Shown: piece after piece, positions 1-23,081 of the stretch
How positions within the stretch are numbered: the stretch's first letter is position 1
Layout of the letters: every line of letters begins with the position of its first letter
NCBI GenBank assembly: GCA_047617745.1
Contig: JBLGBN010000008.1
Coordinates: 1-32,551, forward strand
Direction of reading: 5' to 3'
Length of the DNA stretch: 32,551 nucleotides
From: Candidatus Nanohaloarchaea archaeon
GTDB taxonomy: Archaea; Nanohalarchaeota; Nanosalinia; Nanosalinales; Nanosalinaceae
Translations under genes and position numbers: made by a program
Notes under the pieces: generated by a model
Seen by the model: the letters and a program-made list of their open reading frames with translations, nothing else
What the model was told of the DNA's origin: nothing
The model's database searches: none

Positions 1-2168
1 GGTGTCAGTATCAGTGCTTCGGAGCTGGAACTGCTGAAAACTTCAGGGAAGAAAGCGGTTCCCAGCAGTATTCCGAAGAAAACCACAAGCACCTCTCCTG
101 CGTTGGCTGAAAGCAGGTAGTTCACGAACTTTCTGATATTGTCGAATATTCCTCGGCCTTCTGCGATTGCGTCTCTGATTGTTACGAAATTATCGTCCTG
201 TAAAACCATGTCAGAGCTTTGTTTGGCTACATCTGTTCCTCTTTGTCCCATTGCTATGCCGACGTCGGAGTTTTTGAGTGCTGGTGCGTCGTTCACACCG
301 TCTCCAGTCATCGCTACGTTGTGGCCTTTATGCTGAAGCGCCTGTAGTATTCTTACTTTGTGTTCAGGAGATACACGGGCAAATATCTCGACTTCCTCCA
401 CCTCCTCTCTTAATTCGGCGTCACTCATCTCCTCTACTTCGCTGCCTGTCAGCGCTTTATCTGACTTGAAGCCTATCTGTTCTCCTATGGCCTTAGCTGT
501 CTCGATATTGTCTCCTGTCGCCATCACCACTTTGATGCCGGCTGTCCGGCAGTCTTCCACAGCATCTCTTACTTCTTCTCTTGGAGGGTCTATCATTCCC
601 TGTAAACCAAGGAAGACTAGATTGGATTCTATTTCATCTTCTTCCGCGTCTGGATCAGTATCCTCCTTCCTCGCAAATCCTAGTACTCTTAATGCGTCCT
701 GTGCGAATTCGTGGTTTTTGTCGAGTATTTCCTGTTTTCTTTCTTCAGTTAGTTCTTTCTCTTCGCCGTCTATCAGTATTCTGTTACACCGGTCTAGTAC
801 TGTTTCTGGTGCGCCTTTCATGTATGCGGTTTTATCTTCGGTTACCACCGTCATTCTTTTCCGATCTGAGGAGAACGGTATACTGGTCAGCCTTTCCTTT
901 TTCTCGGTTAGCCCCGCTTTATACGCTGAAACAAGCAGAGCGATTTCAGTAGGTTCTCCAAAGAACTCTTTTTCATCGGCTTCAGGCGCTTTTTCGGCAT
1001 TGTTGCAGTGAAGACCGCATTCCAGTAGCGGTTCCAGATCTTTGTTTGCATTTTTACCGTTTCGCTGGAACTCCCCTTCTGTATCTAACCCGCTCCCGGT
1101 TGCTTCGTATTCCTCCCCCGAGAAGAAGGCTTTTTCCACAGTCATCACTCCTTCTGTAAGTGTGCCGGTCTTATCTGTGACAATAAAGTCTACCGATCCA
1201 AGGCTTTCCACCACGGGCAGTCTTCTTACCAGCGCATTCTTTTCCAGCATTTTTTTCGAACCAAGTGCAAGTGTAAGGGTCACAACTGCAGGTAATCCTT
1301 CCGGTACCGCTGCCACCGCAAGAGTAATAGCTACAAGTAGAACCGTTAACGGACCTGCTGACGTGAAGCTGAACTGTATAAGTCCAACCAGTCCGATTAT
1401 CCCAAATATTCCATAGCCGATCTTCCTTCCCAGTTCATCAACCTCTTTCTGGAAAGGTGTTTTCCGGTCCTCGGCCTCCTCTATCTGTTCTGCTATATCG
1501 CCTACCTGGGTGTCCATTCCTGTTCTGGCGACCACAGCTTTACCTCGGCCTTTAACCACGTTTGTGTTCATGTAGACCATGTTCTCTCTATCAGCCAGTG
1601 TGACATCGCCCTGTAGCTCTCCTGATTCTTTCGATACTGAGCTGCTTTCTCCGGTTAACGCAGATTCATCTGTCTCCAGATTGTTTGACTCGATTATTCT
1701 GGCATCTGCAGGTACTGCATCGCCCTGTTCCAGAAAGATTATATCTCCTGGAACAACTTTCCGTGAGTCTATTTCTTTCTTCTCACCGTCTCTTAGAACT
1801 GTGGTTTTTGGTGTGGAAAGATCTTTCAGTGCGCGTATAGACTTCTCTGCCTTGTAGTCCTGTATGAACCCGAATAGGCCGTTGGCGAGAAGTATAAGCA
1901 GTATAAGCCCGGCTTCTGTGTATTCGGGAGAGTGACCGGGTAAAAGACCTATTCCGAGGGATAGAACTGCGGCAAGTATAAGTATGTATATCAGGAAGTC
2001 ATGGAACTGGCCCAGAAAGATTTTTACTGGTGAAACCTCGTTCTCGTCTTCGATTTCATTGTCGCCGTACTTCTCCCGTCGCTCCTCCACTTCCTCGGAA
2101 CTTAATCCTTTCTCACTGCTCCCAAGTTCGCTGAAAGCTTCGTCGACACCGGTTCTGTACCATTCCAT
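1..2168 (-). CDS. Cation-transporting P-type ATPase (P2A/Ca2+-type like), 3' end outside window
   Basis: Not in the ORF track. My translation from ATG at 2168 gives [27 protein letters not shown]...; it contains [21 protein letters not shown] and [10 protein letters not shown] motifs. Confidence 0.93.
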
Positions 2169-2179
2169 TTTTTGATCAG

Positions 2180-3589
2180 CTACGATACATGTACGTTCTC
2201 GTTTTTTGCGTCCTCACATGCTTCTGCAAACGCTTCCGGGAAAGTAGGATGCGCATGTACGGTCCTTGTAACGTCGTCTAGATACGCCTGCATTTCAAGA
2301 GCAAGAATTGCCTCAGCGATTATATCGGATGCTCTAGGGCCAAGTATCTGGACTCCAAGGAGCCGTCCTTCATCATTCGCGACCACTCTGACAAAACCTT
2401 CTTCCTGGTTTGTGGAGAGTGCTCTTCCGGATGCGGAGAACGGGAATTTCCCGATTTTGATATTATCATGTTTTTCCTCTGCTTTTTCTGGATTCATTCC
2501 GGCGACCGCAATCTCGGGGTCTGTATAGATAACTTTAGGGATATACTGGTTGTCCATTGCTTCGTTTTCGCCGGCTATAACGTCTGCAGCAACTTTACCC
2601 TCCCGATAAGCTTTGTGAGCTAGCATTGGCTGTCCGGCTGCATCTCCGATAGCGTAGATACTGTCGTCGGAGGTTTGCATCTGTTCATCTACTTCAAGGA
2701 AACCGTCTTTGGTTTCCACCTCGGTGTCCTCAAGACCGAGTCCTTTTAGCGCGGGTTCCGCGGTTCTACCTGCGGCTACCAGAATATAGTCTCCACTGAT
2801 CTCGACTTCTTCACCTTCTTTTTCGGCTACCAGAACTGCTTTATTGTCTTTATACTCCACCTTTTTTGCTTCGGTACTGGTGTAAATCTCGTCGTTGTAG
2901 CATCCGCTCACTTCCTGTATTTCCTCGACAAGCTCCTGATCGAAGTTTGGCAATACGTTTTCTCTTGCTTCGACGACCTTTACCTTTGATCCAAACTTAC
3001 AGAACTTTGTTACTGCCTCCATTCCGATGTAGCCGCCGCCAACCACAACTATTTCATCCGGTATTTCATCGAGTTCAAGTAGTTCTCGGGAGGAAATTAT
3101 CTTTTTCTTGTCAAATTCGAGGCCAGGGATTTCGATTGGCTGTGAACCCGTAGCTATTATGGCGTTGTCGAACTTGATGGTTTCTGCGTTGTGCTCCATC
3201 TCGATTCTGGCAGTATTGGAGTCCTGGAAGAAAGCTTTTCCTTTCTTGAACTCAACTCCGTGTTTGTTTAACCGGCTTTCAATCCCTTTATCAAGTCTTT
3301 CAACCACGCTGTTCTTCCACTCCTGTATCTCTTGGAAGTCAACTTCGAGATTATCTGTATGGATGCCGATTTCGTTCCAGTGTTGGATATCTTCCTGGAA
3401 GCCAGCTGCATGGATCAGAGATTTTGCCGGTATACAGCCGTGGTTAAGGCATATACCTCCGATTCCTTCCTTGTCGGCCAGGACGACTTCAAGTCCTTTC
3501 TGCGCGGCTCTGATCGCTGCTGTGTAGCCTCCAGGCCCGGCCCCGATAACCAGCAGGTCTGCACCCTCCTCTATATCGCCGACTACTAT
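2180..3589 (-). CDS. lpdA: Dihydrolipoamide dehydrogenase (E3)
   Basis: GAGPGGY FAD-binding motif, GGICLNHGCIP redox disulfide, C-terminal HAHPTFPE. Start placed at ATA 3589 (IVVGD = family MVVGD); alternative is GTG at 3598. Confidence 0.95.
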   Translation of the reverse strand: MVVGDIEEGADLLVIGAGPGGYTAAIRAAQKGLEVVLADKEGIGGICLNHGCIPAKSLIHAAGFQEDIQHWNEIGIHTDNLEVDFQEIQEWKNSVVERLDKGIESRLNKHGVEFKKGKAFFQDSNTARIEMEHNAETIKFDNAIIATGSQPIEIPGLEFDKKKIISSRELLELDEIPDEIVVVGGGYIGMEAVTKFCKFGSKVKVVEARENVLPNFDQELVEEIQEVSGCYNDEIYTSTEAKKVEYKDNKAVLVAEKEGEEVEISGDYILVAAGRTAEPALKGLGLEDTEVETKDGFLEVDEQMQTSDDSIYAIGDAAGQPMLAHKAYREGKVAADVIAGENEAMDNQYIPKVIYTDPEIAVAGMNPEKAEEKHDNIKIGKFPFSASGRALSTNQEEGFVRVVANDEGRLLGVQILGPRASDIIAEAILALEMQAYLDDVTRTVHAHPTFPEAFAEACEDAKNENVHVS

Positions 3590-3598
3590 CTGGACCAC

Positions 3599-5056
3599 CT
3601 AAAGTTCGAGTATCATGTTTTCAGGGTCTTCCAGGTTTTCAATTACATCATTCATAAACTTTGCTGCATCTGCTCCATCAATAACTCGGTGGTCGTAACT
3701 GAGCGATAGTTTGACAGTCATTCTTGGCTCTATTTTCCCTCCTACTACTTCTGCAGTCTCCTGTATCTTTCCAATCCCAAGTATTGCAGTCTGAGGATAG
3801 TTGATGATAGGTGTAAATTCTTCGCCACCGATTACGCCGAGATTGGTGATTGAGAATGTGCCGTTCCGCATCTTTTCCTGCGATAATTCTCCGTTTCGGG
3901 CTTCTCCGGCTTTCCGGTTTACCTCCTCCGCGATCTCTAGTATATTTTTCTCGTCAATATCTTCAACCAGTGGGACCATTAATCCGTTGTCTGTATCTAC
4001 CGCGATATTGAAGTCGTAATGGTTTTTCAGGACAACGCTGTCTTCTTCCTCGTCAAGCTCTGAGTTCAGCCTTGGGTGTTTCTTCAGCGCAAGATAGACT
4101 GCTTTCATAATGAAGGGAAGATAGGTTAGATGCGTGTCTGTTTTGTCCTTTTTCTCTTCCCTCAGCTCTACCAGTTCAGTTACGTCGGCTGTGTCGAAGT
4201 GTGTTACGTGTGGAGCGGTAAACCTTGATTTTTCCATCCGGTCTGCGATTGTCTTGCGTGTCTGCGACATCTTCACCCGTCTCTCATCGCCTTCAATATC
4301 AATAACGTCGGATTTATCCCTGTTTCCAGTGTCAGATTTTTTGTCCTTTGCCGCGTTTAAGACATCTTCACGGGTAACTTTACCTCCTCTTCCGCTTCCC
4401 TCAATGTTCTGTATTCGGATTTCTTTTTCTCTAGCCAGCTTTCTGACCGACGGTGTTGCGAGGACGTCCGATTGATCAGACTCTTTTTCTGGTTCGGTAG
4501 CTCTGGTTTCAGCTTCATCTTCCTGAACCTCTGTATCGGCTTCTTGCTGCTCTCTGTTTCCAGAGTCCTTTTCGGCAGCATCTAGAACCTCCTCTTCTGT
4601 TATCCTTTCACCTGTTTTGATAGAGGCTAGATCTACATTTTTCTCTTCAGCCAGCTTCCTGACTTTCGGCAGGGCAAGCACTTCGCCCTCTAACTCAGTT
4701 TCCGTGGCTGACTGTTCTTCCTTCTCAGCTTCCTCCGGCTCTATCTCCACTTCATCCGTTTCCTGCCTTTCTTCGCTCTGCTGCTCCTTTACATCATTGG
4801 ACTCATTATTTTCCTGCTCAGAGCCTTCAACATCTAGAATCATTATGACATCTCCAACTTCTATATTATCGCCGGGGGATGCCTTAAGCTCTTTAACTGT
4901 CCCGTTGGAGGGTGCGGGAATATCCACTACTGCTTTATCTGTCTCTGCTTCCCCGACTACCTGATCTTCTTCTACTTCATCCTCTTCTTCAACTTTCCAT
5001 TCGAGGAACTGTCCTTCTGTCACTCCTTCGCCGGTGTCGGGAAATTCAAACTTGAT
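3599..5056 (-). CDS. pdhC: Dihydrolipoamide acyltransferase (E2)
   Basis: Lipoyl domain ETDKA, two peripheral-subunit-binding repeats, catalytic DHRVIDG. Start is either ATC 5056 (SD-spaced) or GTG 5065. Confidence 0.93.
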   Translation of the reverse strand: MKFEFPDTGEGVTEGQFLEWKVEEEDEVEEDQVVGEAETDKAVVDIPAPSNGTVKELKASPGDNIEVGDVIMILDVEGSEQENNESNDVKEQQSEERQETDEVEIEPEEAEKEEQSATETELEGEVLALPKVRKLAEEKNVDLASIKTGERITEEEVLDAAEKDSGNREQQEADTEVQEDEAETRATEPEKESDQSDVLATPSVRKLAREKEIRIQNIEGSGRGGKVTREDVLNAAKDKKSDTGNRDKSDVIDIEGDERRVKMSQTRKTIADRMEKSRFTAPHVTHFDTADVTELVELREEKKDKTDTHLTYLPFIMKAVYLALKKHPRLNSELDEEEDSVVLKNHYDFNIAVDTDNGLMVPLVEDIDEKNILEIAEEVNRKAGEARNGELSQEKMRNGTFSITNLGVIGGEEFTPIINYPQTAILGIGKIQETAEVVGGKIEPRMTVKLSLSYDHRVIDGADAAKFMNDVIENLEDPENMILEL

Positions 5057-5065
5057 TTTAACCAC

Positions 5066-6034
5066 CTAGAATTCCAGAACTCTTTCCAGTCCTTTAACAG
5101 CCCGTTTTTTGTTCGGCATGTAGTAATCTTCAAGCGTGTAGAGCGGGTAAGGCACGTCAGGACCGGTAACACGTTCAACCGGCGCCTCCATGTGAAGTAT
5201 CTCGTTTTCCTGTATTCTTGACGCTATCTCTGCGCCAAATCCGGCGCTTTTCGGAGCTTCATGTAGAACCATTGCCCGGCCTGTTTTCTCCACTGAACTG
5301 TAGATTGTTTCGTAATCTGTAGGGTAGATTGTTCTGAGATCTATTATTTCGACGTCCGCATTGACTTCGTCCGCTGCGTCTTCTGCGACAGGGATCATTG
5401 CACCCCAGGCAATTAATGTGACGTCTTCTCCTTCCCGGGCTATTCTGGCCTTCTCCAGCTCTACTTCTTTCTCCCGGTCAACATCTTCCTTGAAAGCCCG
5501 GTAGATTTTCTTCGGTTCCAGGAACACTACAGGGTCGTCAGTCTGGATTGATTTCCTGAGAAGCGAGTATGTGTCCTGCGGAGTGCTTGGTATCACGACG
5601 TGCAATCCTTCAGCGTGTGCGAAGAAAGCTTCAGGTGATTCCTGGTGGTGCTCCAGGGCATTTATCCCTCCGCCGTAGGGCGCTCTCATTGTCAGAGGTA
5701 CATTGTAGTCTCCTCTGCTTCTTATTCTCATCCTTGCTGCGTGTTCTTTCATCTGGTAAAAAGCCAGGTAGGAAAAACCGGAGAACTGCATTTCCACTAC
5801 AGGTCTGAAGCCGTACAAGCTCATCCCTATAGCGGTTCCGGCTATCCCTGACTCTGCCAGAGGCGAAGAGAAACATCTTTTCTCTCCAAACTCTTCCTGC
5901 AATCCTTCCGTGGCACGGAAAACCCCGCCGTCCTCACCGACGTCTTCCCCGTAAGCTATTACTTTTTCATCCTGTTCCATTTCATCGTGGAGCGCTGCGT
6001 TAACAGCTTCAACTATATTCATTTTCTCCGACAT
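5066..6034 (-). CDS. pdhB: 2-oxoacid (pyruvate) dehydrogenase E1 beta
   Basis: GEDVG..GGVFRAT, PLAESGI and EHHQESPE motifs; SD GGAGGTGG and TAATG overlap with pdhA. Confidence 0.93.
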   Translation of the reverse strand: MSEKMNIVEAVNAALHDEMEQDEKVIAYGEDVGEDGGVFRATEGLQEEFGEKRCFSSPLAESGIAGTAIGMSLYGFRPVVEMQFSGFSYLAFYQMKEHAARMRIRSRGDYNVPLTMRAPYGGGINALEHHQESPEAFFAHAEGLHVVIPSTPQDTYSLLRKSIQTDDPVVFLEPKKIYRAFKEDVDREKEVELEKARIAREGEDVTLIAWGAMIPVAEDAADEVNADVEIIDLRTIYPTDYETIYSSVEKTGRAMVLHEAPKSAGFGAEIASRIQENEILHMEAPVERVTGPDVPYPLYTLEDYYMPNKKRAVKGLERVLEF

Positions 6035-7089
6035 TATTCCCCCACCTCCAGATCCTGTTTCAGTTCCTTCTTTTCTTCCTTCAGCAGTTCGGGCATCTCG
6101 CCATAGACATAGTCAAACAGTTCGTCGAACTCCGGTTCGTCCGCTTCAATTGCTTCCTGAGCTGCCTCGTTCACTTTTTCCTCTGCGTCTTCACCGTAGT
6201 TTTCGAGTTCCTCGCTCCAGATATCGTTTTCCTTTAGGTATTCTCTGAAACGTTTGAGCGGGTCCTTTTCTTTCCATTCCTCGACCTCTTCATCATCTCT
6301 GTATCTCGTGGAGTCATCTGACGTTGTATGGTCCTCCAGTCTGTATGTTAAAGCTTCAATTAACACAGGTTCGCCGTTTTCCGCTTTTTCCTTCGCCTCT
6401 CTGACAGCTTTAATTACTGCCAGTATATCGTTTCCGTCGACCTGTATTCCGTCTATTCCATATGCGATGGCTTTCTGCGCCAGTGTTTCCGACTTTGTCT
6501 GACCTTCGCGTGGCATTGAGATTGCAAACTGGTTGTTCTGCACAAAGAAGACCGAGTGTGCGCTGTAAACCCCTGAGAAGTTGAGAGCCTCATGGAAATC
6601 ACCTTCCGAAGTGCTTCCGTCCCCGGTAAATCCTAGAACTATGTTATCATCTCCTTCGAACTCCATCGCCATTCCAAGCCCGGCGGTGTGAAGGTTCTGT
6701 GTGCCTACCGGTATCGCTACTGGTAAGGTGTTCAGTTCGGATAGATCTTTCTGTCCGTTGGCGTCACCCATCCATCTCTGGAATATTTTGTCTAGGGGGG
6801 CGCCTCTCATAATGAATGCTGCGGTTTCTCTGAAGCTTGGAACGATCCAGTCGTCCTCTCCCAGAGCAAATATTGATCCTATCTGCGCGGCTTCCTGTCC
6901 TTTGTGAGGTGCGTAGGTCGATATCTCTCCTCTCCTCTGAAGTGAGAATGCTTTTTCGTCGAATTTTCTGGCCAAAACCATCTTTCTGTAGAGTTTTTTT
7001 AGTTCCTCTTCGTCTAACTCGAGGTCTTCGTCTGAATCCATTACCTCGATTTTTTCGATACTCTCCGAGAATACTTCTTCACGCCCCAT
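6034..7089 (-). CDS. pdhA: 2-oxoacid (pyruvate) dehydrogenase E1 alpha
   Basis: TPP-binding GDGSTSEGDFHEALNF...NNQFAIS; YRLEDHTTSDD loop. Confidence 0.93.
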   Translation of the reverse strand: MGREEVFSESIEKIEVMDSDEDLELDEEELKKLYRKMVLARKFDEKAFSLQRRGEISTYAPHKGQEAAQIGSIFALGEDDWIVPSFRETAAFIMRGAPLDKIFQRWMGDANGQKDLSELNTLPVAIPVGTQNLHTAGLGMAMEFEGDDNIVLGFTGDGSTSEGDFHEALNFSGVYSAHSVFFVQNNQFAISMPREGQTKSETLAQKAIAYGIDGIQVDGNDILAVIKAVREAKEKAENGEPVLIEALTYRLEDHTTSDDSTRYRDDEEVEEWKEKDPLKRFREYLKENDIWSEELENYGEDAEEKVNEAAQEAIEADEPEFDELFDYVYGEMPELLKEEKKELKQDLEVGE

Positions 7090-15614: not shown

Positions 15615-15968
15615 TTATCCTGAAATTTTTTCGTCTTCATTATCGTCTTTTATCTGTTCGATTATGTTTTTGTCCTCGATTAAGACCTTGAATATGTGGT
15701 GGGAAACCTTTTCGCCCCACTCGAGGAAATAGTTCTCGACCTTCTGTACTCTGTTGTTTGCTATTATGAATACGGAATCGTCGATCCGGGCGTTAGGTAT
15801 TTTGTCCATCAGTCCGTCTTTCTCGTACTCGTATTTCTTCCCGTTTTTCTTGACTGTCTGTTTGTATCCGAAGAGCCCTCTGTAGAACTTGTTTCGTTCG
15901 TAGACTGACTCGAACTTGTCTCTATGGGTGTTGTACGTCAGTAATGAGGCATCCTCTTTTCCGGACAT
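15615..15968 (-). CDS. Hypothetical 117-aa protein, possible Cas2/VapD-like ferredoxin fold
   Basis: Start moved to ATG 15968 (MSGKED...) to avoid overlap with radB; pattern LLTYNT...RNKFYRGL...DDSVFII. Confidence 0.7.
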   Translation of the reverse strand: MSGKEDASLLTYNTHRDKFESVYERNKFYRGLFGYKQTVKKNGKKYEYEKDGLMDKIPNARIDDSVFIIANNRVQKVENYFLEWGEKVSHHIFKVLIEDKNIIEQIKDDNEDEKISG

Positions 15969-16074
15969 AGTAGAACGATATCTGTTTACCTTTAAACCTT
16001 TTTTGTTGACGTGAGTAAAAAATTTCTGTGTTCTGATTCCTATAAGATAAAAGATTTGGAAGCAAGGATTCAGT

Positions 16075-16764
16075 GTGGAAGTTAAAAGGGTATCAACGGG
16101 GAGCAAGCCTATCGACTCTTTCCTGAAAGGGGGGCTTGAGACAGGTATAATAACCAATGTATTTGGAGAATCAGGGTCTGGCAAGACCAATTTCTGCGTT
16201 CAGGCGGCAGCTCATATAGCCGAGAAGGGGAAAAAAGTGGTGTATATTGATACTGAGAAGGGTTTCTCGCCCGAGCGTTTCAAACAGATAGCTTCAGAGG
16301 AAGCACTTGAGAATATTGTACTGAACGAGCCGGTTGATTTTGAACAGCAGGAGGAAGCGATAAACTCTCTCGACGAGATAGTTGAGGAGCATGATCCCGG
16401 TATTGTTATCGTGGATTCGATGGTGTCGCTTTATCGTTTGAAGGCGAAAGGAGATCAGGTGCAGGAGGTAAACCAGCGGCTTTCACAGCAGCTTTCACAG
16501 CTCTCCAAGATCGCGAGAAAACAGGATATCCCGGTTCTTGTCACCAATCAGGTATACAGTAGTTTTGACGAGGACAGCATAGAGCTGGTCGGGAGAGACG
16601 TGCCACGTTACTGGTCCAAGTGTCTCCTCAAACTTTCAACTATGGATCAGGCAGTTAGAAAGATCGAGATCGAGAAGCATCGGTCGATGCCGGAAGGAAA
16701 ATCGGCACAGTTCAAGATAACAAATGACGGGCTTGAATCTGTCAAGAATAAAGGGCTGTTCTGA
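16075..16764 (+). CDS. radB: DNA repair protein RadB
   Basis: RecA core without N-terminal domain; GESGSGKT, YIDTE, VDSM, TNQV and the RadB-type KHR motif. Confidence 0.92.
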   Translation: MEVKRVSTGSKPIDSFLKGGLETGIITNVFGESGSGKTNFCVQAAAHIAEKGKKVVYIDTEKGFSPERFKQIASEEALENIVLNEPVDFEQQEEAINSLDEIVEEHDPGIVIVDSMVSLYRLKAKGDQVQEVNQRLSQQLSQLSKIARKQDIPVLVTNQVYSSFDEDSIELVGRDVPRYWSKCLLKLSTMDQAVRKIEIEKHRSMPEGKSAQFKITNDGLESVKNKGLF

Positions 16765-17696: not shown

Positions 17697-17731
17697 AATT
17701 TATTAAACAGTCAGTGAGTATAACCGTTAAC

Positions 17732-18001
17732 ATGGACCTAGAGGACTACCGGAAGGAAATTGACAGGGTTAACACCGAGATCGCCGATGCAGTTTCCCGC
17801 AGAATGAATATAGTTGAGGAGATCGGTGAGTACAAGAAAGAAAAAGGAATGGAAATCAAAGATGAAGGAAGAGAGGAGAAGGTGAAACAGCAGTTTGAGA
17901 AACTGTTTGAAAGAGAAGATCTTCCAAAGGAGAAGGGTCGTGAAATGGCAGAGCTTCTGATCGAAATGGCGCTGGAAGAGGAAAAGGGTGGTGAAAACTG
18001 A
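17732..18001 (+). CDS. Chorismate mutase (AroQ type)
   Basis: LEDYRKEIDRVNTEI...RRMNIVEEIGEYKKEKG..IKDEGRE; TATA-like TTTATTAA about 26 nt upstream of ATG 17732. Confidence 0.88.
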   Translation: MDLEDYRKEIDRVNTEIADAVSRRMNIVEEIGEYKKEKGMEIKDEGREEKVKQQFEKLFEREDLPKEKGREMAELLIEMALEEEKGGEN

Positions 18002-18777
18002 AAGTAGCATTTCTGGGCCCTGAAGGAACCTACACTCACCAGGCGGTTGACCAGTACTTCTCAGACTACGAGCCAGTTACCTGCTCAAGTATTAAAGAAT
18101 CAGTTGAATCCGCTGAAGTAGCTGTTATACCTTTTGAAAACTCTCTGGGTGGAGGAGTAGGCGAGGCTATTGACATACTGAGAGAGAAAAATCTTGAAGT
18201 CACAGGAGAGATTCTGGTCGAAATCGATCATGTACTGGCTTCGGAAGGCAGCTTTGAAGATATACAGAAGATCCGCTCACATCCTCAGGCGTTAAGCCAG
18301 TGCCGGGAGATGATTGAAGAAAACGGCTGGGAGGAAGTGGAGTCTTCTTCAACTGCGAAGGCAGCTGAGGAGATAGAGGAAAACGAGGCCGCGATATGTT
18401 CGCGACTCGCTGCTGAACTTAATGACCTTGAGATCCTCAGAGAAAGCGTTCAGGACGAGAAATCAAACACTACGAGATTTCTTGTGATAGGCGGAGAGAA
18501 AGAGACCGAGCCGGGTAAAACCTCGTTTGTTCTGGAGCCTGGAGATGACCGCCCTGGGCTTCTGGGCAGCATGCTTTCATGCTTCTCCGGCCACGGCATA
18601 AACCTATCCTACATACAGTCAAGACCAACAAGAGACGGTTTAGGAGAATACTATTTCTATGTGGAAGCAGAGGAAAACGAGAACTCGGAGAGCATGGAAG
18701 AAGCGATGAGATGCCTGAAGACTTACGCAGATGTCAAAAACCTTGGTTCCTACAGGAAAGGTGAGAAAAATGTTTAG
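17998..18777 (+). CDS. pheA: Prephenate dehydratase with ACT domain (non-canonical CTG start)
   Basis: Frame open from CTG 17998: LKVAFLGPEGTYTH..PFENS..SHPQALSQC..NTTRF..DRPGLL..IQSRP. The ORF track shows only the last 155 aa. Confidence 0.9.
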   Translation: MKVAFLGPEGTYTHQAVDQYFSDYEPVTCSSIKESVESAEVAVIPFENSLGGGVGEAIDILREKNLEVTGEILVEIDHVLASEGSFEDIQKIRSHPQALSQCREMIEENGWEEVESSSTAKAAEEIEENEAAICSRLAAELNDLEILRESVQDEKSNTTRFLVIGGEKETEPGKTSFVLEPGDDRPGLLGSMLSCFSGHGINLSYIQSRPTRDGLGEYYFYVEAEENENSESMEEAMRCLKTYADVKNLGSYRKGEKNV

Positions 18778-19873
18778 AGACAGGGTTGAGAACATAGATC
18801 TCTCGATAAGAAAAATAGCGGAAAAAGCCGGGAAGAAAGAGGAATGCGTCCGTTTTGATATTGGTCAGCCAAGCTTTGACACACCTCAGCACATTAAAGA
18901 TGCGGCTGAAAAAGGCCTGGAGAATAAACAGGGATACTCTCCTATGTTAGGAATTGAGGAGCTGAGAGAAGCTGTTTTGGGAGAGGAAGAGCTAAAGCAA
19001 GGTATTTCTGGCCTTGGAAAAGAAAATGTGATGATAACGACCGGTGGAATGGGTGCTTTATACGCCGTTTTCTCCGCACATCTTGGCTCCGAGGATAAAG
19101 CTGTGTTCAATGATCCATGCTGGGGTCCGTACAAGATGATCAGCGAAATCAACGGCAACCAGTGGGAACAGGTAGAATACTGGAACGGGGATGATGAACT
19201 AAGAGAAGAAGCGAAGGATAAGATCAGAGAAGCCGATTTCTTTATAGTCAACACTCCGTCCAACCCAACCGGTAAAGTGCTATCTGAGGAACAGGCTAGA
19301 GAAATTGGAGACTTTGCAGATAAAACCGGTACTTTGATGATTTCTGATGAGGTATACCACCGTTTAACCTTTGGAAAAGAGCATTACTCGCCTGCAGTTC
19401 ACTCAGATAATTCTGTGATAATTGGATCGGTTTCAAAGAACCATGCGATGACCGGCTGGAGAGTTGGATGGGTCGTCGCTCCTGAAGACAGTATAGAGCA
19501 GTACGCAAAAGTTTCGAGAGCGACTACTGCCTGTCCGCCGAGAATATCGCAGTACGCAGCGGTTGAAGCCCTGGAAAATGATTCTCATGTCGGAGAGATG
19601 AGAGAGACTTACAGGGAGAGGAGAGATCTGTTAGTTGAAAGAATGGAGGAGCTTGGATGGGATTTCGAGATTCCAGAAGGCTCGATCTACGCGTTCCCGG
19701 AGGTTGGCAGGGATTCCTGGGATTTCTGCCTTGAAATGGTTGAGAAAGGAGTTGCCATGGTTCCTGGAGAGCCGATGGGGCCGGAAAGCGATCAAAACGT
19801 CAGGATATGTTTCGGCTCAACGACGAAAGAAGAGATCAATAGGGCGTTCGACATCTTGGAGGGAGAACTATGA
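18770..19873 (+). CDS. PLP-dependent class I aminotransferase (aromatic/aspartate)
   Basis: GQPSF, NTPSNPTG, SDEVY, SVSKNHAMTGWRVG; SD AGGTGA before ATG 18770. Confidence 0.92.
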   Translation: MFRDRVENIDLSIRKIAEKAGKKEECVRFDIGQPSFDTPQHIKDAAEKGLENKQGYSPMLGIEELREAVLGEEELKQGISGLGKENVMITTGGMGALYAVFSAHLGSEDKAVFNDPCWGPYKMISEINGNQWEQVEYWNGDDELREEAKDKIREADFFIVNTPSNPTGKVLSEEQAREIGDFADKTGTLMISDEVYHRLTFGKEHYSPAVHSDNSVIIGSVSKNHAMTGWRVGWVVAPEDSIEQYAKVSRATTACPPRISQYAAVEALENDSHVGEMRETYRERRDLLVERMEELGWDFEIPEGSIYAFPEVGRDSWDFCLEMVEKGVAMVPGEPMGPESDQNVRICFGSTTKEEINRAFDILEGEL

Positions 19874-20727
19874 TTGACCAGAGAATTGCTATACTCGGAG
19901 GTACCGGCCAGTTCGGACAGCACTTGGGAGAACATCTCGAAGAGAACAACGAGATAGTTATCTCCGGAAAAGATACTGAAGAGGCTGAAAAAGTTGCGGA
20001 AGAAAACGGCTGGGAGTACGGCTCAAACAAGGAGGTTGTCAGGGATGCAGATGTCGTTATAGTCGCGGTACCTATCGCTGTAACCGTAGAGGTTATACAT
20101 GAGGTCGGCACCGAGATCTCCGATGATACACTGTTATGTGATATTACCTCTGTAAAGAAGAAGCCTGTTGAGGCCATGATGAACTATTCAGACGAAGTTC
20201 TCGGCATGCATCCGATGTATGCACCCAGCAATTCAATTAGAGGGCAGAAAGTGGTACTAACACCAGAAAAGGGGCAGAAATGGACCGAGATGGAGGAATT
20301 CTGGACTGAAAATGGCGCTGATACGCATATTACCGATCCTGAATCCCATGATAAAGCAATGTCCCTGGTTCAGGGACTGATGCATTTCTCGGAACTGGTT
20401 GTAGCCGAAACCATCAGGAAATCGGATATTGGCGGCGAGGAAATGTCGAACTATTCTTCGCCTGTCTACCAGTTAATAACTGATCTAACTGCCCGAATGC
20501 TGAACCAGAAACCGGGTCTTTACGGCAGTATACAGGCCGAGAACCCGGAAAATGTCGAGGTCCGGGAGAGGTTTATCGAGTCCGCCGAAGATATCCGGGA
20601 ACTGATCGGTGACGAGGAAGCTTTCAGCCGGAAGTTTGAGGAGCTCGGTGGAGAGTTCGATCTTGAAGGAGCGCAGGACAGAACTGACTCGGTTATCGAG
20701 TTTCTTTCTGATGATGTAAGAGAATAA
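19870..20727 (+). CDS. tyrA: Prephenate/arogenate dehydrogenase
   Basis: ILGGTGQFG Rossmann motif, DITSVK, HPMYAP, HDKAMSLVQGLMH; ATGA overlap with the upstream gene. Confidence 0.9.
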   Translation: MIDQRIAILGGTGQFGQHLGEHLEENNEIVISGKDTEEAEKVAEENGWEYGSNKEVVRDADVVIVAVPIAVTVEVIHEVGTEISDDTLLCDITSVKKKPVEAMMNYSDEVLGMHPMYAPSNSIRGQKVVLTPEKGQKWTEMEEFWTENGADTHITDPESHDKAMSLVQGLMHFSELVVAETIRKSDIGGEEMSNYSSPVYQLITDLTARMLNQKPGLYGSIQAENPENVEVRERFIESAEDIRELIGDEEAFSRKFEELGGEFDLEGAQDRTDSVIEFLSDDVRE

Positions 20728-20745: not shown

Positions 20746-21948
20746 CTACTCCAGTAGGTTTCTAATCCTGTTCCTGAAGTAGAATGCGGTGGCGAGAGCT
20801 ATTACCAGAAGCACAGCAATGTAGACTGATAGGTTGGAGTCTGAAGATGAGGATTCGGCGACACTGACTTTCAGTGTTTCATCCTCAACAAATACTTCTG
20901 TGCCTTTGGTGCCTCTCGTTTCGAAATCCAGCAGGTAGTCCTTGGCGGAAGCGCCTGAATCTGTCTCTACCTCAAAGACAGCTTCTCCGGACTGGCCAGG
21001 TTCAAGGCTTCCGATGTACTTGCTGGCAGAGTCATAGCTGAACGGCTGGTCGCTTGAATCCAGGACGCGGATCCGGGTTGACGATGATTTCTCTTCTCCG
21101 GTGTTCTCTACTTTCAGTCTGAGTTCGCCTGTGGAGCCTGCCTCCAGACTGCTTTCAGCTACCTCCACGCTGTACTGCGGTTTACCTGCCATGAAGAGGC
21201 CAAAGCTTGTCTCCTCTGTTATCTCTGAGGAGTCTCCTGCGGAATATGTTATCTCTCCGTTAACTGTAACCTCTCCTTTCGGTGCGCTGTCACTGATGTC
21301 AAAGTTGAAATTGGCTGTCTTGACTTCTCCCGGCTGGATGCTTCCCAGTGCCTGTCTTGTGGAGAAGCTGGAGGTTCTCTCGAAGAACTCCGGCAGTTCG
21401 AGATCAAGAACCACGTTTTCCGCTGTCTTGTCTCCGCTGTTCACTACGTCAACCGAAAGCTGATTGCTGTCTGTATCCGGCATCAGTTCGGATGGCTGTG
21501 TCTGGAGGTTGGCCAGATTGAGATTGATGTTCTTGCTCTGGACTTCCACGGGCACGTTCTTTGTTACTGTGAAATCGCCGTGGATGATTTTTACCTTAAA
21601 GCTGTTGGATCCGTCAGGTGCGTCCTCCGCTGTCATTACTTCTGTGGAGATGTGGTACTCCTCCCCGGGAGCGATATCTCCGAGAGAGTAGTTCTTCTTC
21701 CGGTCCGGCTTAACGCTGAACGGGAAGCTGTCGACCAGCTGGACTTTGACGTCGCTGGCCTCTGTATTCCCTGTGTTCCTGATCTTGAAGTTCAGGTCAC
21801 CGTCCTCTCCCGACTGAAGAGGAACAGGGTCGGTGCTGACGAGTGTTGTCTCGAGATTTGCTGTCGGACCTGTACTGGTTGTTTGGGCTGCTGCAGCCCC
21901 TATGAAAAGCGCTGCGAGCAGTGCGATTGAAGTTGTTTTCGTGTTCAT
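20746..21948 (-). CDS. COG1361-type cell-surface protein (signal peptide, three Ig-like repeats, C-terminal TM anchor)
   Basis: Repeats NTGN..LGDIAPGE, NSGD..LGSIQPGE, NTGE..IGSLEPGQ. Confidence 0.85.
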   Translation of the reverse strand: MNTKTTSIALLAALFIGAAAAQTTSTGPTANLETTLVSTDPVPLQSGEDGDLNFKIRNTGNTEASDVKVQLVDSFPFSVKPDRKKNYSLGDIAPGEEYHISTEVMTAEDAPDGSNSFKVKIIHGDFTVTKNVPVEVQSKNINLNLANLQTQPSELMPDTDSNQLSVDVVNSGDKTAENVVLDLELPEFFERTSSFSTRQALGSIQPGEVKTANFNFDISDSAPKGEVTVNGEITYSAGDSSEITEETSFGLFMAGKPQYSVEVAESSLEAGSTGELRLKVENTGEEKSSSTRIRVLDSSDQPFSYDSASKYIGSLEPGQSGEAVFEVETDSGASAKDYLLDFETRGTKGTEVFVEDETLKVSVAESSSSDSNLSVYIAVLLVIALATAFYFRNRIRNLLE

Positions 21949-23081
21949 TGTTGTTTCACCTTTAGCATTATTTTTGAAGAGTACCTGTCGTACAGAACCA
22001 TTGAAACCGGGATAAGCGTGAGCGCCCCAATGTACGCGCAGAGGGTTGTAAGCGTAAGCATTGTCCCCATATCTGAAAGGAAGGTAATCCGCCCGAATGA
22101 AAGCGAGTTGAACCCGATAAGAGCTGCGGTAAGAGCTATGGTCATAGGATTCAGGACGCCGTCTATAGTTTCCGCAAGCGCCCCGGCTATATCACCGTTC
22201 TTCCGCTCCTCCCTGTACCGGGAAACTGTCTGTATACCGAAGTCTATTGCGATACCCATTCCCATTGATATGGCGCCGGAGGTTGCAGGACTCATGTTAA
22301 GCCCCAGCCATCCGTAGATCCCGAAACCACCGATTATTCCAAGAATCAGGGCGAGAAGGGATGTCAGGCCGTTAGTGACGGACCGGAAAAGCAGTACAAC
22401 AACCACAAATACGCCCAGAAGAGAGATGGCTGAAGTATTGCTCATCGTGCTCTGGGACTGCTGTTGGAATGCCTGGTTGATGAAAGGTGTGCCGGTGTAG
22501 CTGACCTCGATGCCGGAAGGGATATCGTTTACTTTGACTGATGTTTGGAGTCTGTCCGCCAGCTCCTCCTGCTCGCTCTGCGAAAGATCGGTTGAGGTAA
22601 CTCGCATTATCGTGAAGGTGTAGTCGCTGGAGACGAACTGGCTTGATCTCCCTGATTCCTGGAGTTGGGCTGATGCGTTTCTCAGCGTGGAAGGATTTCT
22701 GACCAGGTCAGAAGCTGAGGAAACAGCTGTAACCTGGCTCATGCTGGATACATCATTGGAGACTGTCTCCAGGTACCGGAGGAACTCTGGATCCCTGACA
22801 TCCCGGATCTCGGTCGAGTTTGCGTAGCTGGGATCTGTCTCGAAAAGTACTGTGTATGTTGATCCACTGCTTCCCTGCCCGAACTCAGCGCCTATAACCT
22901 CGAAGGCGCTTACAGAGTCAATTGTGTCAGGCAGGAGATCCTGGTTGTTCTGTTCAACGGTCTCCACGTTTGATGCGCCGACCGCCATGAAGGCTGTGAG
23001 CGATACTATGACAAGTAGGAAGATGAACGGTTTGTCGGCTATCAGGCGCGAGTAAGCATCTATTATTTTCTCTCTGTTCAC
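21945..23081 (-). CDS. MMPL/RND-family transporter half (second)
   Basis: TM1, extracytoplasmic loop ending TGTP, five TMs, GIAIDF. Start placed at GTG 23081 (GAGGTGG SD + 5 nt, GTGA overlap). Confidence 0.87.
   Translation of the reverse strand: MNREKIIDAYSRLIADKPFIFLLVIVSLTAFMAVGASNVETVEQNNQDLLPDTIDSVSAFEVIGAEFGQGSSGSTYTVLFETDPSYANSTEIRDVRDPEFLRYLETVSNDVSSMSQVTAVSSASDLVRNPSTLRNASAQLQESGRSSQFVSSDYTFTIMRVTSTDLSQSEQEELADRLQTSVKVNDIPSGIEVSYTGTPFINQAFQQQSQSTMSNTSAISLLGVFVVVVLLFRSVTNGLTSLLALILGIIGGFGIYGWLGLNMSPATSGAISMGMGIAIDFGIQTVSRYREERKNGDIAGALAETIDGVLNPMTIALTAALIGFNSLSFGRITFLSDMGTMLTLTTLCAYIGALTLIPVSMVLYDRYSSKIMLKVKQQ

Follow-up and report, generated by a model that had tools for sequence, protein, structure and literature searches.

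At which codons do lpdA and pdhC begin in the pdhABC-lpdA cluster of this nanohaloarchaeon? The window, a stretch of 32,551 nucleotides (nt), is contig C8 of an 834-kb nanohaloarchaeal assembly (G000), metagenome-assembled and 88.6% complete. Public gene calls hold only GTG-extended forms of the two proteins, 472 and 488 residues long; the shorter forms are without entry. The original prediction placed the starts at ATA 3589 and ATC 5056, behind Shine-Dalgarno (SD) motifs that contain the called GTGs. Starts at ATA and ATC are supported here, with a probability of roughly 0.85, by SD pairing energies, by the codons of orthologs and by relatives in which in-frame stops force the later codon. 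Judged from sequence, an ordinary initiator Met-tRNA would be positioned by the SD on a near-cognate codon. ATG, GTG and TTG are termed canonical; ATH stands for ATA, ATT or ATC. The features concerned are as follows.

2180..3589, minus strand: lpdA (dihydrolipoamide dehydrogenase, E3), 469 codons from the proposed ATA (3589-3587); Pfam Pyr_redox_2 and Pyr_redox_dim.
3594..3600, minus strand: SD AGGTGGT of lpdA; it shares bases with the TAG that ends pdhC (3601-3599), and the called GTG (3598-3596) lies within it; -10.9 kcal/mol.
3599..5056, minus strand: pdhC (E2 acetyltransferase), 485 codons from the proposed ATC (5056-5054); Pfam Biotin_lipoyl from residue 2.
5061..5067, minus strand: SD AGGTGGT of pdhC; it shares bases with the TAG that ends pdhB (5068-5066), and the called GTG (5065-5063) lies within it; -9.3 kcal/mol.
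5066..6034, minus strand: pdhB (E1 beta), ordinary ATG behind GGAGGTGG; SD -12.9 kcal/mol; Pfam Transket_pyr.
6034..7089, minus strand: pdhA (E1 alpha), ordinary ATG, first gene of the cluster; Pfam E1_dh.

Read on the minus strand, the lpdA junction is the pdhC TAG followed by GTG GTC CAG ATA GTA GTC GGC GAT. The pdhC junction is the pdhB TAG followed by GTG GTT AAA ATC AAG TTT GAA TTT CCC GAC. Both readings agree with the predicted geometry: ATA 3589 and ATC 5056 lie each exactly 5 nt past the GGTGG of the SD TAGGTGGT, which is merged with the upstream stop. Pairing energies were computed with the 16S rRNA tail of a same-genus genome (GAUCACCUCC); among relatives, 17 of 18 full-length 16S loci end in GATCACCTCC. 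Pairing amounts to -10.9 kcal/mol before ATA 3589 and -9.3 kcal/mol before ATC 5056, versus -2.2 and -2.4 kcal/mol before the called GTGs 3598 and 5065, which thus sit inside an SD and have none of their own, as had been claimed. Canonical starts have spacers of 4-10 nt; those of the three cases here, 5, 5 and 3-6 nt, are within that range or adjacent to it.

Orthologs of lpdA were compared at 30 family loci, 29 of them readable (one with an N gap). Alignment of the ortholog junctions bore out the interchange that had been expected at this exact codon: the triplet before VVGD is ATG in 18 loci, GTG in 5, TTG in 2, ATA in 2, ATT in 1 and ATC in 1, i.e., canonical in 25/29 and ATH in 4/29. The opposite pattern, extra residues retained with ATG at the site of the SD-embedded GTG, is absent (0/29), and the spacer residues between GTG and ATA are without conservation. 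One ortholog (L011) reads TGA TGA ATT ATT GTC and reaches its first canonical codon 25 codons later; therefore no canonical start is available ahead of the conserved N-terminus. The four ATH genes have SD energies of -8.4 to -10.9 kcal/mol versus a median of -6.5 in the 18 ATG genes (p=0.003, the genes being non-independent kin). Because the ATH genes have the stronger SDs, it appears that a weak codon is permitted where the SD is strong. Variation between ATG and near-cognates at the lpdA start has the look of drift that is tolerated.

Of the 30 family loci, 24 contain the pdhC 5' end. A canonical codon lies 1-3 codons upstream in 10, ATG, GTG or TTG occupies the codon itself in 6, and ATH in 8. 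The eight ATH loci have ATT or ATC and, except within the SD, no canonical codon. In five of them no ATG, GTG or TTG occurs between an in-frame stop and the ATH codon: the stop directly precedes it in L002 and L029, and in L003, L015 and L022 the codons that separate the two are all non-canonical. In-frame stops also stand between the SD-embedded GTG and ATT/ATC in relatives. The same-genus loci L002 and L003 keep the pdhC junction, with the GTG reading broken by an in-frame stop or a frame shift. A further relative, found in three runs, probably reads TAG GTG ATC TAA ATT/ATC, to judge from equal contig depths and among the differences listed.

A third near-cognate start had been claimed in the window for pheA, and an ordinary GTG start at 23081 had been cited for its geometry. 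The features are:

17998..18777, plus strand: pheA (prephenate dehydratase with ACT domain), proposed CTG start in a CTGA overlap with the chorismate mutase stop; Pfam PDT from residue 3.
17987..17994, plus strand: SD GGTGGTGA of pheA; -9.4 kcal/mol.
21945..23081, minus strand: MMPL-family gene, ordinary GTG start predicted at 23081 in a GTGA overlap with the upstream stop; Pfam MMPL.

The pheA junction reads GGT GGT GAA AAC TGA in the chorismate mutase frame, over TGA AAA CTG AAA GTA GCA in the pheA frame. An in-frame TGA (17992-17994) stands two codons before CTG 17998, and the first canonical codon after CTG comes 104 codons later. Matches to pheA are present in 30/61 genomes and 22/36 family relatives; 5' ends were read in two, and both have ATG-KVA at the CTG codon. 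The claim stands accordingly: the CTG start would be forced by the in-frame stop and is the strongest case in the window. GTG 23081 (context GAG GTG GTC CCG GTG AAC) lies 5 nt past GGTGG, in the same geometry as ATA and ATC; its SD energy is -14.3 versus -2.5 kcal/mol for GTG 23090, and it serves as a control for the geometry within the window. Genes for chorismate mutase, pheA, an aminotransferase-like and a prephenate dehydrogenase-like protein cluster at 17714-20727 (plus strand), unexpected in a biosynthesis-poor lineage.

The metG gene lies outside the window (contig C10:6964; L191:265). Of the 34 family genomes with a match, 32 were read at the start. The codon 5-8 nt past the SD core is ATC in 14, ATT in 13, TTC in 1, GTC in 1 and ATG in 1, with another codon or no SD in 2; ATT or ATC behind an AGGTG SD is thus present in 27/32. 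In G000 the TSALPY...HLGN motif is encoded upstream of the first canonical codon. Several sister-family genomes have GTC, TTC, TTT or ATC at this position; a canonical alternative exists in some of them. Metagenome copies without SD have mostly ATG. Many copies have a TATA-like TTTAAA a short way upstream of the SD, and the stop-overlap junction is absent in most relatives. The non-ATG metG start is conserved family-wide and likely under selection; a regulatory role is speculation.

Could the odd codons be artefacts, either introduced in assembly or left by recent deleterious mutation of ATG in a population that is poorly sampled? The assembly is metagenomic and incomplete, and ATA and ATC each differ from ATG by a single base. 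Against this stand identical contigs from other runs: they span 3589 without a single difference in X11 and X12, and 5056 in these two and in X13. None of the three is flagged as a possible assembly source; all are 2024 sediment runs and may belong to one campaign. The same codon class recurs in several genera, and in metG it is kept in 27/32. An artefact is very improbable. Editing of the mRNA into AUG-like triplets is less probable still, barely worth entertaining: conversion of AUA to AUI would be possible in principle, but one editing chemistry cannot fix ATA, ATC, ATT, CTG and TTC/GTC alike. To our knowledge no mRNA editing system is known in these archaea, and none was searched for.

The extent of near-cognate starts was examined across the genome. 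A dicodon gene finder made for this analysis predicted 859 genes in G000, 115 with an SD core at the 5' end. Of these 115 5' ends, 94 have a canonical codon (3-12 nt), 13 a near-cognate only (4-9 nt) and 8 neither. At the 21 non-canonical SD sites, near-cognate triplets make up 14/41 in frame versus 2/84 out of frame (p=2e-6); their share in gene bodies, for comparison, is 81/943. In a plain tally of the slot after the SD, ATG, GTG and TTG are clear and near-cognates weak, the signal appearing once canonical sites are set aside. For 7/13 candidates, homology or Pfam supports that conserved sequence already includes the next canonical codon that is not part of the SD. The seven are metG, pdhC, lpdA, pheA and the genes of a ThiS/SAMP-like protein, a Nudix hydrolase and an ADP-dependent kinase. 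Of the other six, ATPase subunit I and a 126-codon open reading frame (ORF) of unknown function are plausible. About 1% of predicted genes likely start at ATA, ATC, ATT or CTG behind a strong SD. Homology screens of starts were blurred by off-by-one alignments and conserved same-genus leaders; single examples were taken from them, counts were not.

Three family relatives, tested in part (800 of 957, 800 of 1028 and 400 of 973 kb), have the excess as well, with 10/24, 7/34 and 4/14 near-cognates in frame versus 1/48, 3/72 and 0/28 out of frame. In an outgroup (G059, 260 of 1620 kb), near-cognates account for 0 of 11 SD-led genes, a sample too small to serve as control. 'Relaxed start selection', as proposed originally, holds for roughly one SD-led gene in every 10 to 15; a level above that of other SD-using archaea would be speculative.

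Individual candidates are described as follows. ThiS/SAMP-like protein of 70 residues ending in GG (C1:101934-102143, L192), ATC behind GGTGATCCGGG, the same 11 nt being present in a genome of another genus (L108). A-type ATPase subunit I (C12:16787, L193), ATA behind a strong SD, orthologs reading Met-Ile/Val there, ATG 5 codons on. The 126-codon ORF (C16:6786-7163, L196), ATT behind an SD, no later canonical codon, no Pfam match. Near-cognate candidates occur in relatives (L099, L108, L167, L134, L147, L180, L115, L125), with names read from N-termini; among them are an RFC-like protein (ATC; three orthologs ATG), a CoA-ligase alpha-like protein (CTG) and a PIN-like protein (ATT; two orthologs ATG).

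Several observations weigh against near-cognate initiation. The aligned pdhC codon is an internal Leu/Ile in 10/24 orthologs and ATG in 1/24; a three-residue GTG extension would therefore be tolerated. Since the codon is so often internal, support for pdhC comes from the stop-forced relatives (5/8) and not from codon swapping. In this genome GTGs 3598 and 5065 stand in frame directly behind the stop, a setting in which reinitiation is conceivable. Four of the 13 screen candidates are doubtful (ATG 4, 13 or 18 codons on, or GTG 16 codons upstream) and eight SD sites are without a start-like codon, so the screen has noise. A genome of another family (G043, 400 kb) is without significant enrichment (3/25 in frame versus 4/52), though with candidates. 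Sulfolobus solfataricus aIF1 rejects AUU in vitro (PMC4705826); the proposed mechanism must therefore overcome a known check.

The annotation itself offers the rival explanation: the called GTGs would be real starts, reached by termination at TAG and SD-less reinitiation, and ATA and ATC internal Ile codons. Besides the position of the GTGs and the public calls, it has on its side that termination-reinitiation coupling is shown in Haloferax volcanii (PMC7531240) and that N-terminal extensions on pdhC are common among orthologs. The GTGs are without an SD, however, whereas five lpdA orthologs with ATG right after the stop have an SD inside the upstream gene (-5.2 to -8.0 kcal/mol); L002 and L003 have lost the GTG reading; and pheA and metG are left unexplained. 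The genome at large bears on the same point. G000 has 14 genes in which an AGGTG contains an in-frame GTG no more than three codons past a stop. The codon 3-4 codons on is ATG, GTG or TTG in 9, only ATH in 4 and nothing in 1; a start-like codon is thus present in 13/14, versus 33/140 control codon pairs further down (p=8e-8). On this evidence GTGs inside AGGTG after a stop behave as part of the SD. Initiation at the called GTGs is unlikely by a wide margin, and the shorter forms from ATA and ATC are retained in what follows.

The mechanism proposed for them is as follows. Base pairing of the 16S tail with AGGUGGU, which overlaps the upstream stop, would set an ordinary initiator Met-tRNA on a near-cognate (one-mismatch) codon 5 nt downstream. 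Met would be inserted, giving the N-termini M-VVGD (lpdA) and M-KFEFPD (pdhC). Ribosomes terminating a few bases upstream perhaps help, by termination-reinitiation, at these operon-internal genes.

A lost or weakened fidelity component (aIF1, KsgA dimethylation, threonylcarbamoyladenosine (t6A) modification or initiator tRNA) might contribute; it would be a contributing cause, not an alternative. An unusual initiator tRNA was rejected: A1-U72 and three G-C anticodon-stem pairs are present, as is normal. The KsgA family is present in 59/61 genomes, G000 included, Sua5 in 24/24 and Kae1 in 23/24 family relatives, and loss of KsgA or of the t6A enzymes was rejected for the family; neither Sua5 nor Kae1 was found in the incomplete G000. 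aIF1 is present in 52/61 genomes, with no match in G000. Its loss was rejected, because rps19, rpl2, rpl23, rpl4, rpl22 and rpl29 are missing in G000 too and rpl3 is cut at the contig end, which makes the absence an assembly gap. G000 also lacks a 16S rRNA gene and most of the S10 ribosomal protein cluster, as well as Sua5 and Kae1; close relatives have each of these, and gaps are likely.

What favours a weakened component is the basic loop of aIF1. It reads (T/S)R(S/T)(F/Y)(G/N)K in 20/21 family sequences (L343-L355, L031-L040, L056, L101), with Ser/Thr aligned to the Arg before Tyr-Gly-Lys of Pyrococcus and Methanocaldococcus jannaschii aIF1 (R31 of P. abyssi). The P. abyssi R31A variant binds 30S 7-fold more weakly; it still binds 30S:mRNA at <3 nM, i.e., tightly (PMC6237735). 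G024, the sole family genome with the loop Arg, has an ATG metG without SD (single case), but sister-family genomes that keep Arg (G038, G052, G040) have TTT, ATC or TTC behind the metG SD. The aIF1 of an outgroup (G060) has Gln at the R31 position. G017 has two tandem aIF1 copies. With the factors present across the family and the initiator tRNA normal, a weakened component is doubtful even in a contributing role. A broader conjecture, a little less doubtful and still improbable, is that the SD overrides codon identity in Nanohaloarchaea: about 1/10 of strongly SD-led genes would begin at AUA, AUU, AUC or CUG, the weak metG AUY (even GUC/UUC) would link control of this gene to the supply of initiator tRNA, and the Arg-to-Ser/Thr change in aIF1 would loosen proofreading.

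If near-cognate initiation is real, a strong SD can override the aIF1 check in a living archaeon, and the ATG orthologs of the housekeeping genes concerned serve as natural controls. Gene callers would be adding false residues (lpdA, pdhC) or cutting catalytic N-termini (104 residues of pheA; the HIGH-type motif of metG). Cultured nanohaloarchaea with deposited proteomes make such starts testable now.

Other features of the window are as follows. A putative P-type cation-transport ATPase gene, read from its DKTGTLT motif region, comes after lpdA at 1-2166 (minus strand) and is truncated by the contig end. A radB-like gene (16051-16764, plus strand) is overlapped at its 5' end by an opposite-strand ORF (15615-16199, minus strand) of some 150-190 codons. 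An Rfam scan of the window gave no match, and a structured RNA element was dropped on that result.

Near-cognate, SD-led starts are a rare but known kind; pcnB has such a start, and ATT, ATC, ATA and CTG are alternative initiators in NCBI table 11. Nanohaloarchaea would be a new lineage for them. In reviews, AUG, GUG and UUG are named as archaeal start codons (PMC7531240). A full-text literature search, mostly outside subscription journals and without supplements, found no ATH or CTG starts reported for Nanohaloarchaeota; look-ups in PMC4500146 and PMC7002104 gave nothing that bears on them either. Weaker start codons (GUG/UUG) go with stronger SD motifs according to Belinky, Rogozin and Koonin (PMC5622118). 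In their annotation-based survey AUG-to-AUU switches number 1 in 61,358, compared with ATH in 4/29 lpdA loci here (PMC5622118).

The closest bacterial parallel is the AUU start of infC (IF3), a near-cognate at normal spacing behind a strong SD, as here (PMC4705826). An ordinary initiator tRNA presumably reads the near-cognate codon in both. The infC start works with IF3 machinery, whereas the archaeal case involves aIF1/aIF2 and, by the present reading, several metabolic genes per genome. A regulatory role of the infC type is not evident for lpdA, whose codon swaps freely with ATG. Conservation of the weak codon, as expected under such a role, is lacking in lpdA (ATH 4/29) and pdhC (8/24) and present in metG (27/32). 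The genes encode E2, E3 and PheA and not a codon-sensing fidelity factor; nor is there an infC-type loop through the start of aIF1 itself, since it is ATG in 13/13 relatives read.

Among archaeal systems, termination-reinitiation coupling (PMC7531240) offers a parallel in overlap geometry only: the present starts are no more than 9 nt away from the upstream stop (CTGA, GTGA, TAG in the SD). Unlike these junctions, metG in most relatives stands apart. Ribosome profiling of H. volcanii found about 30% of putative alternative start sites near-cognate, so archaeal ribosomes may use such codons; in that report the sites are set aside as possible false positives and are not main starts of housekeeping genes (PMC7261190). 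Closest in kind is the Asgard tubulin gene atubA, with a proposed ATT behind a ribosome-binding site (PMC13394414): likewise archaeal, likewise with a wrong deposited N-terminus and likewise argued from homology. There a single gene of another phylum is concerned; in nanohaloarchaea the pattern is family-wide, with codon interchange and stop-forced cases.

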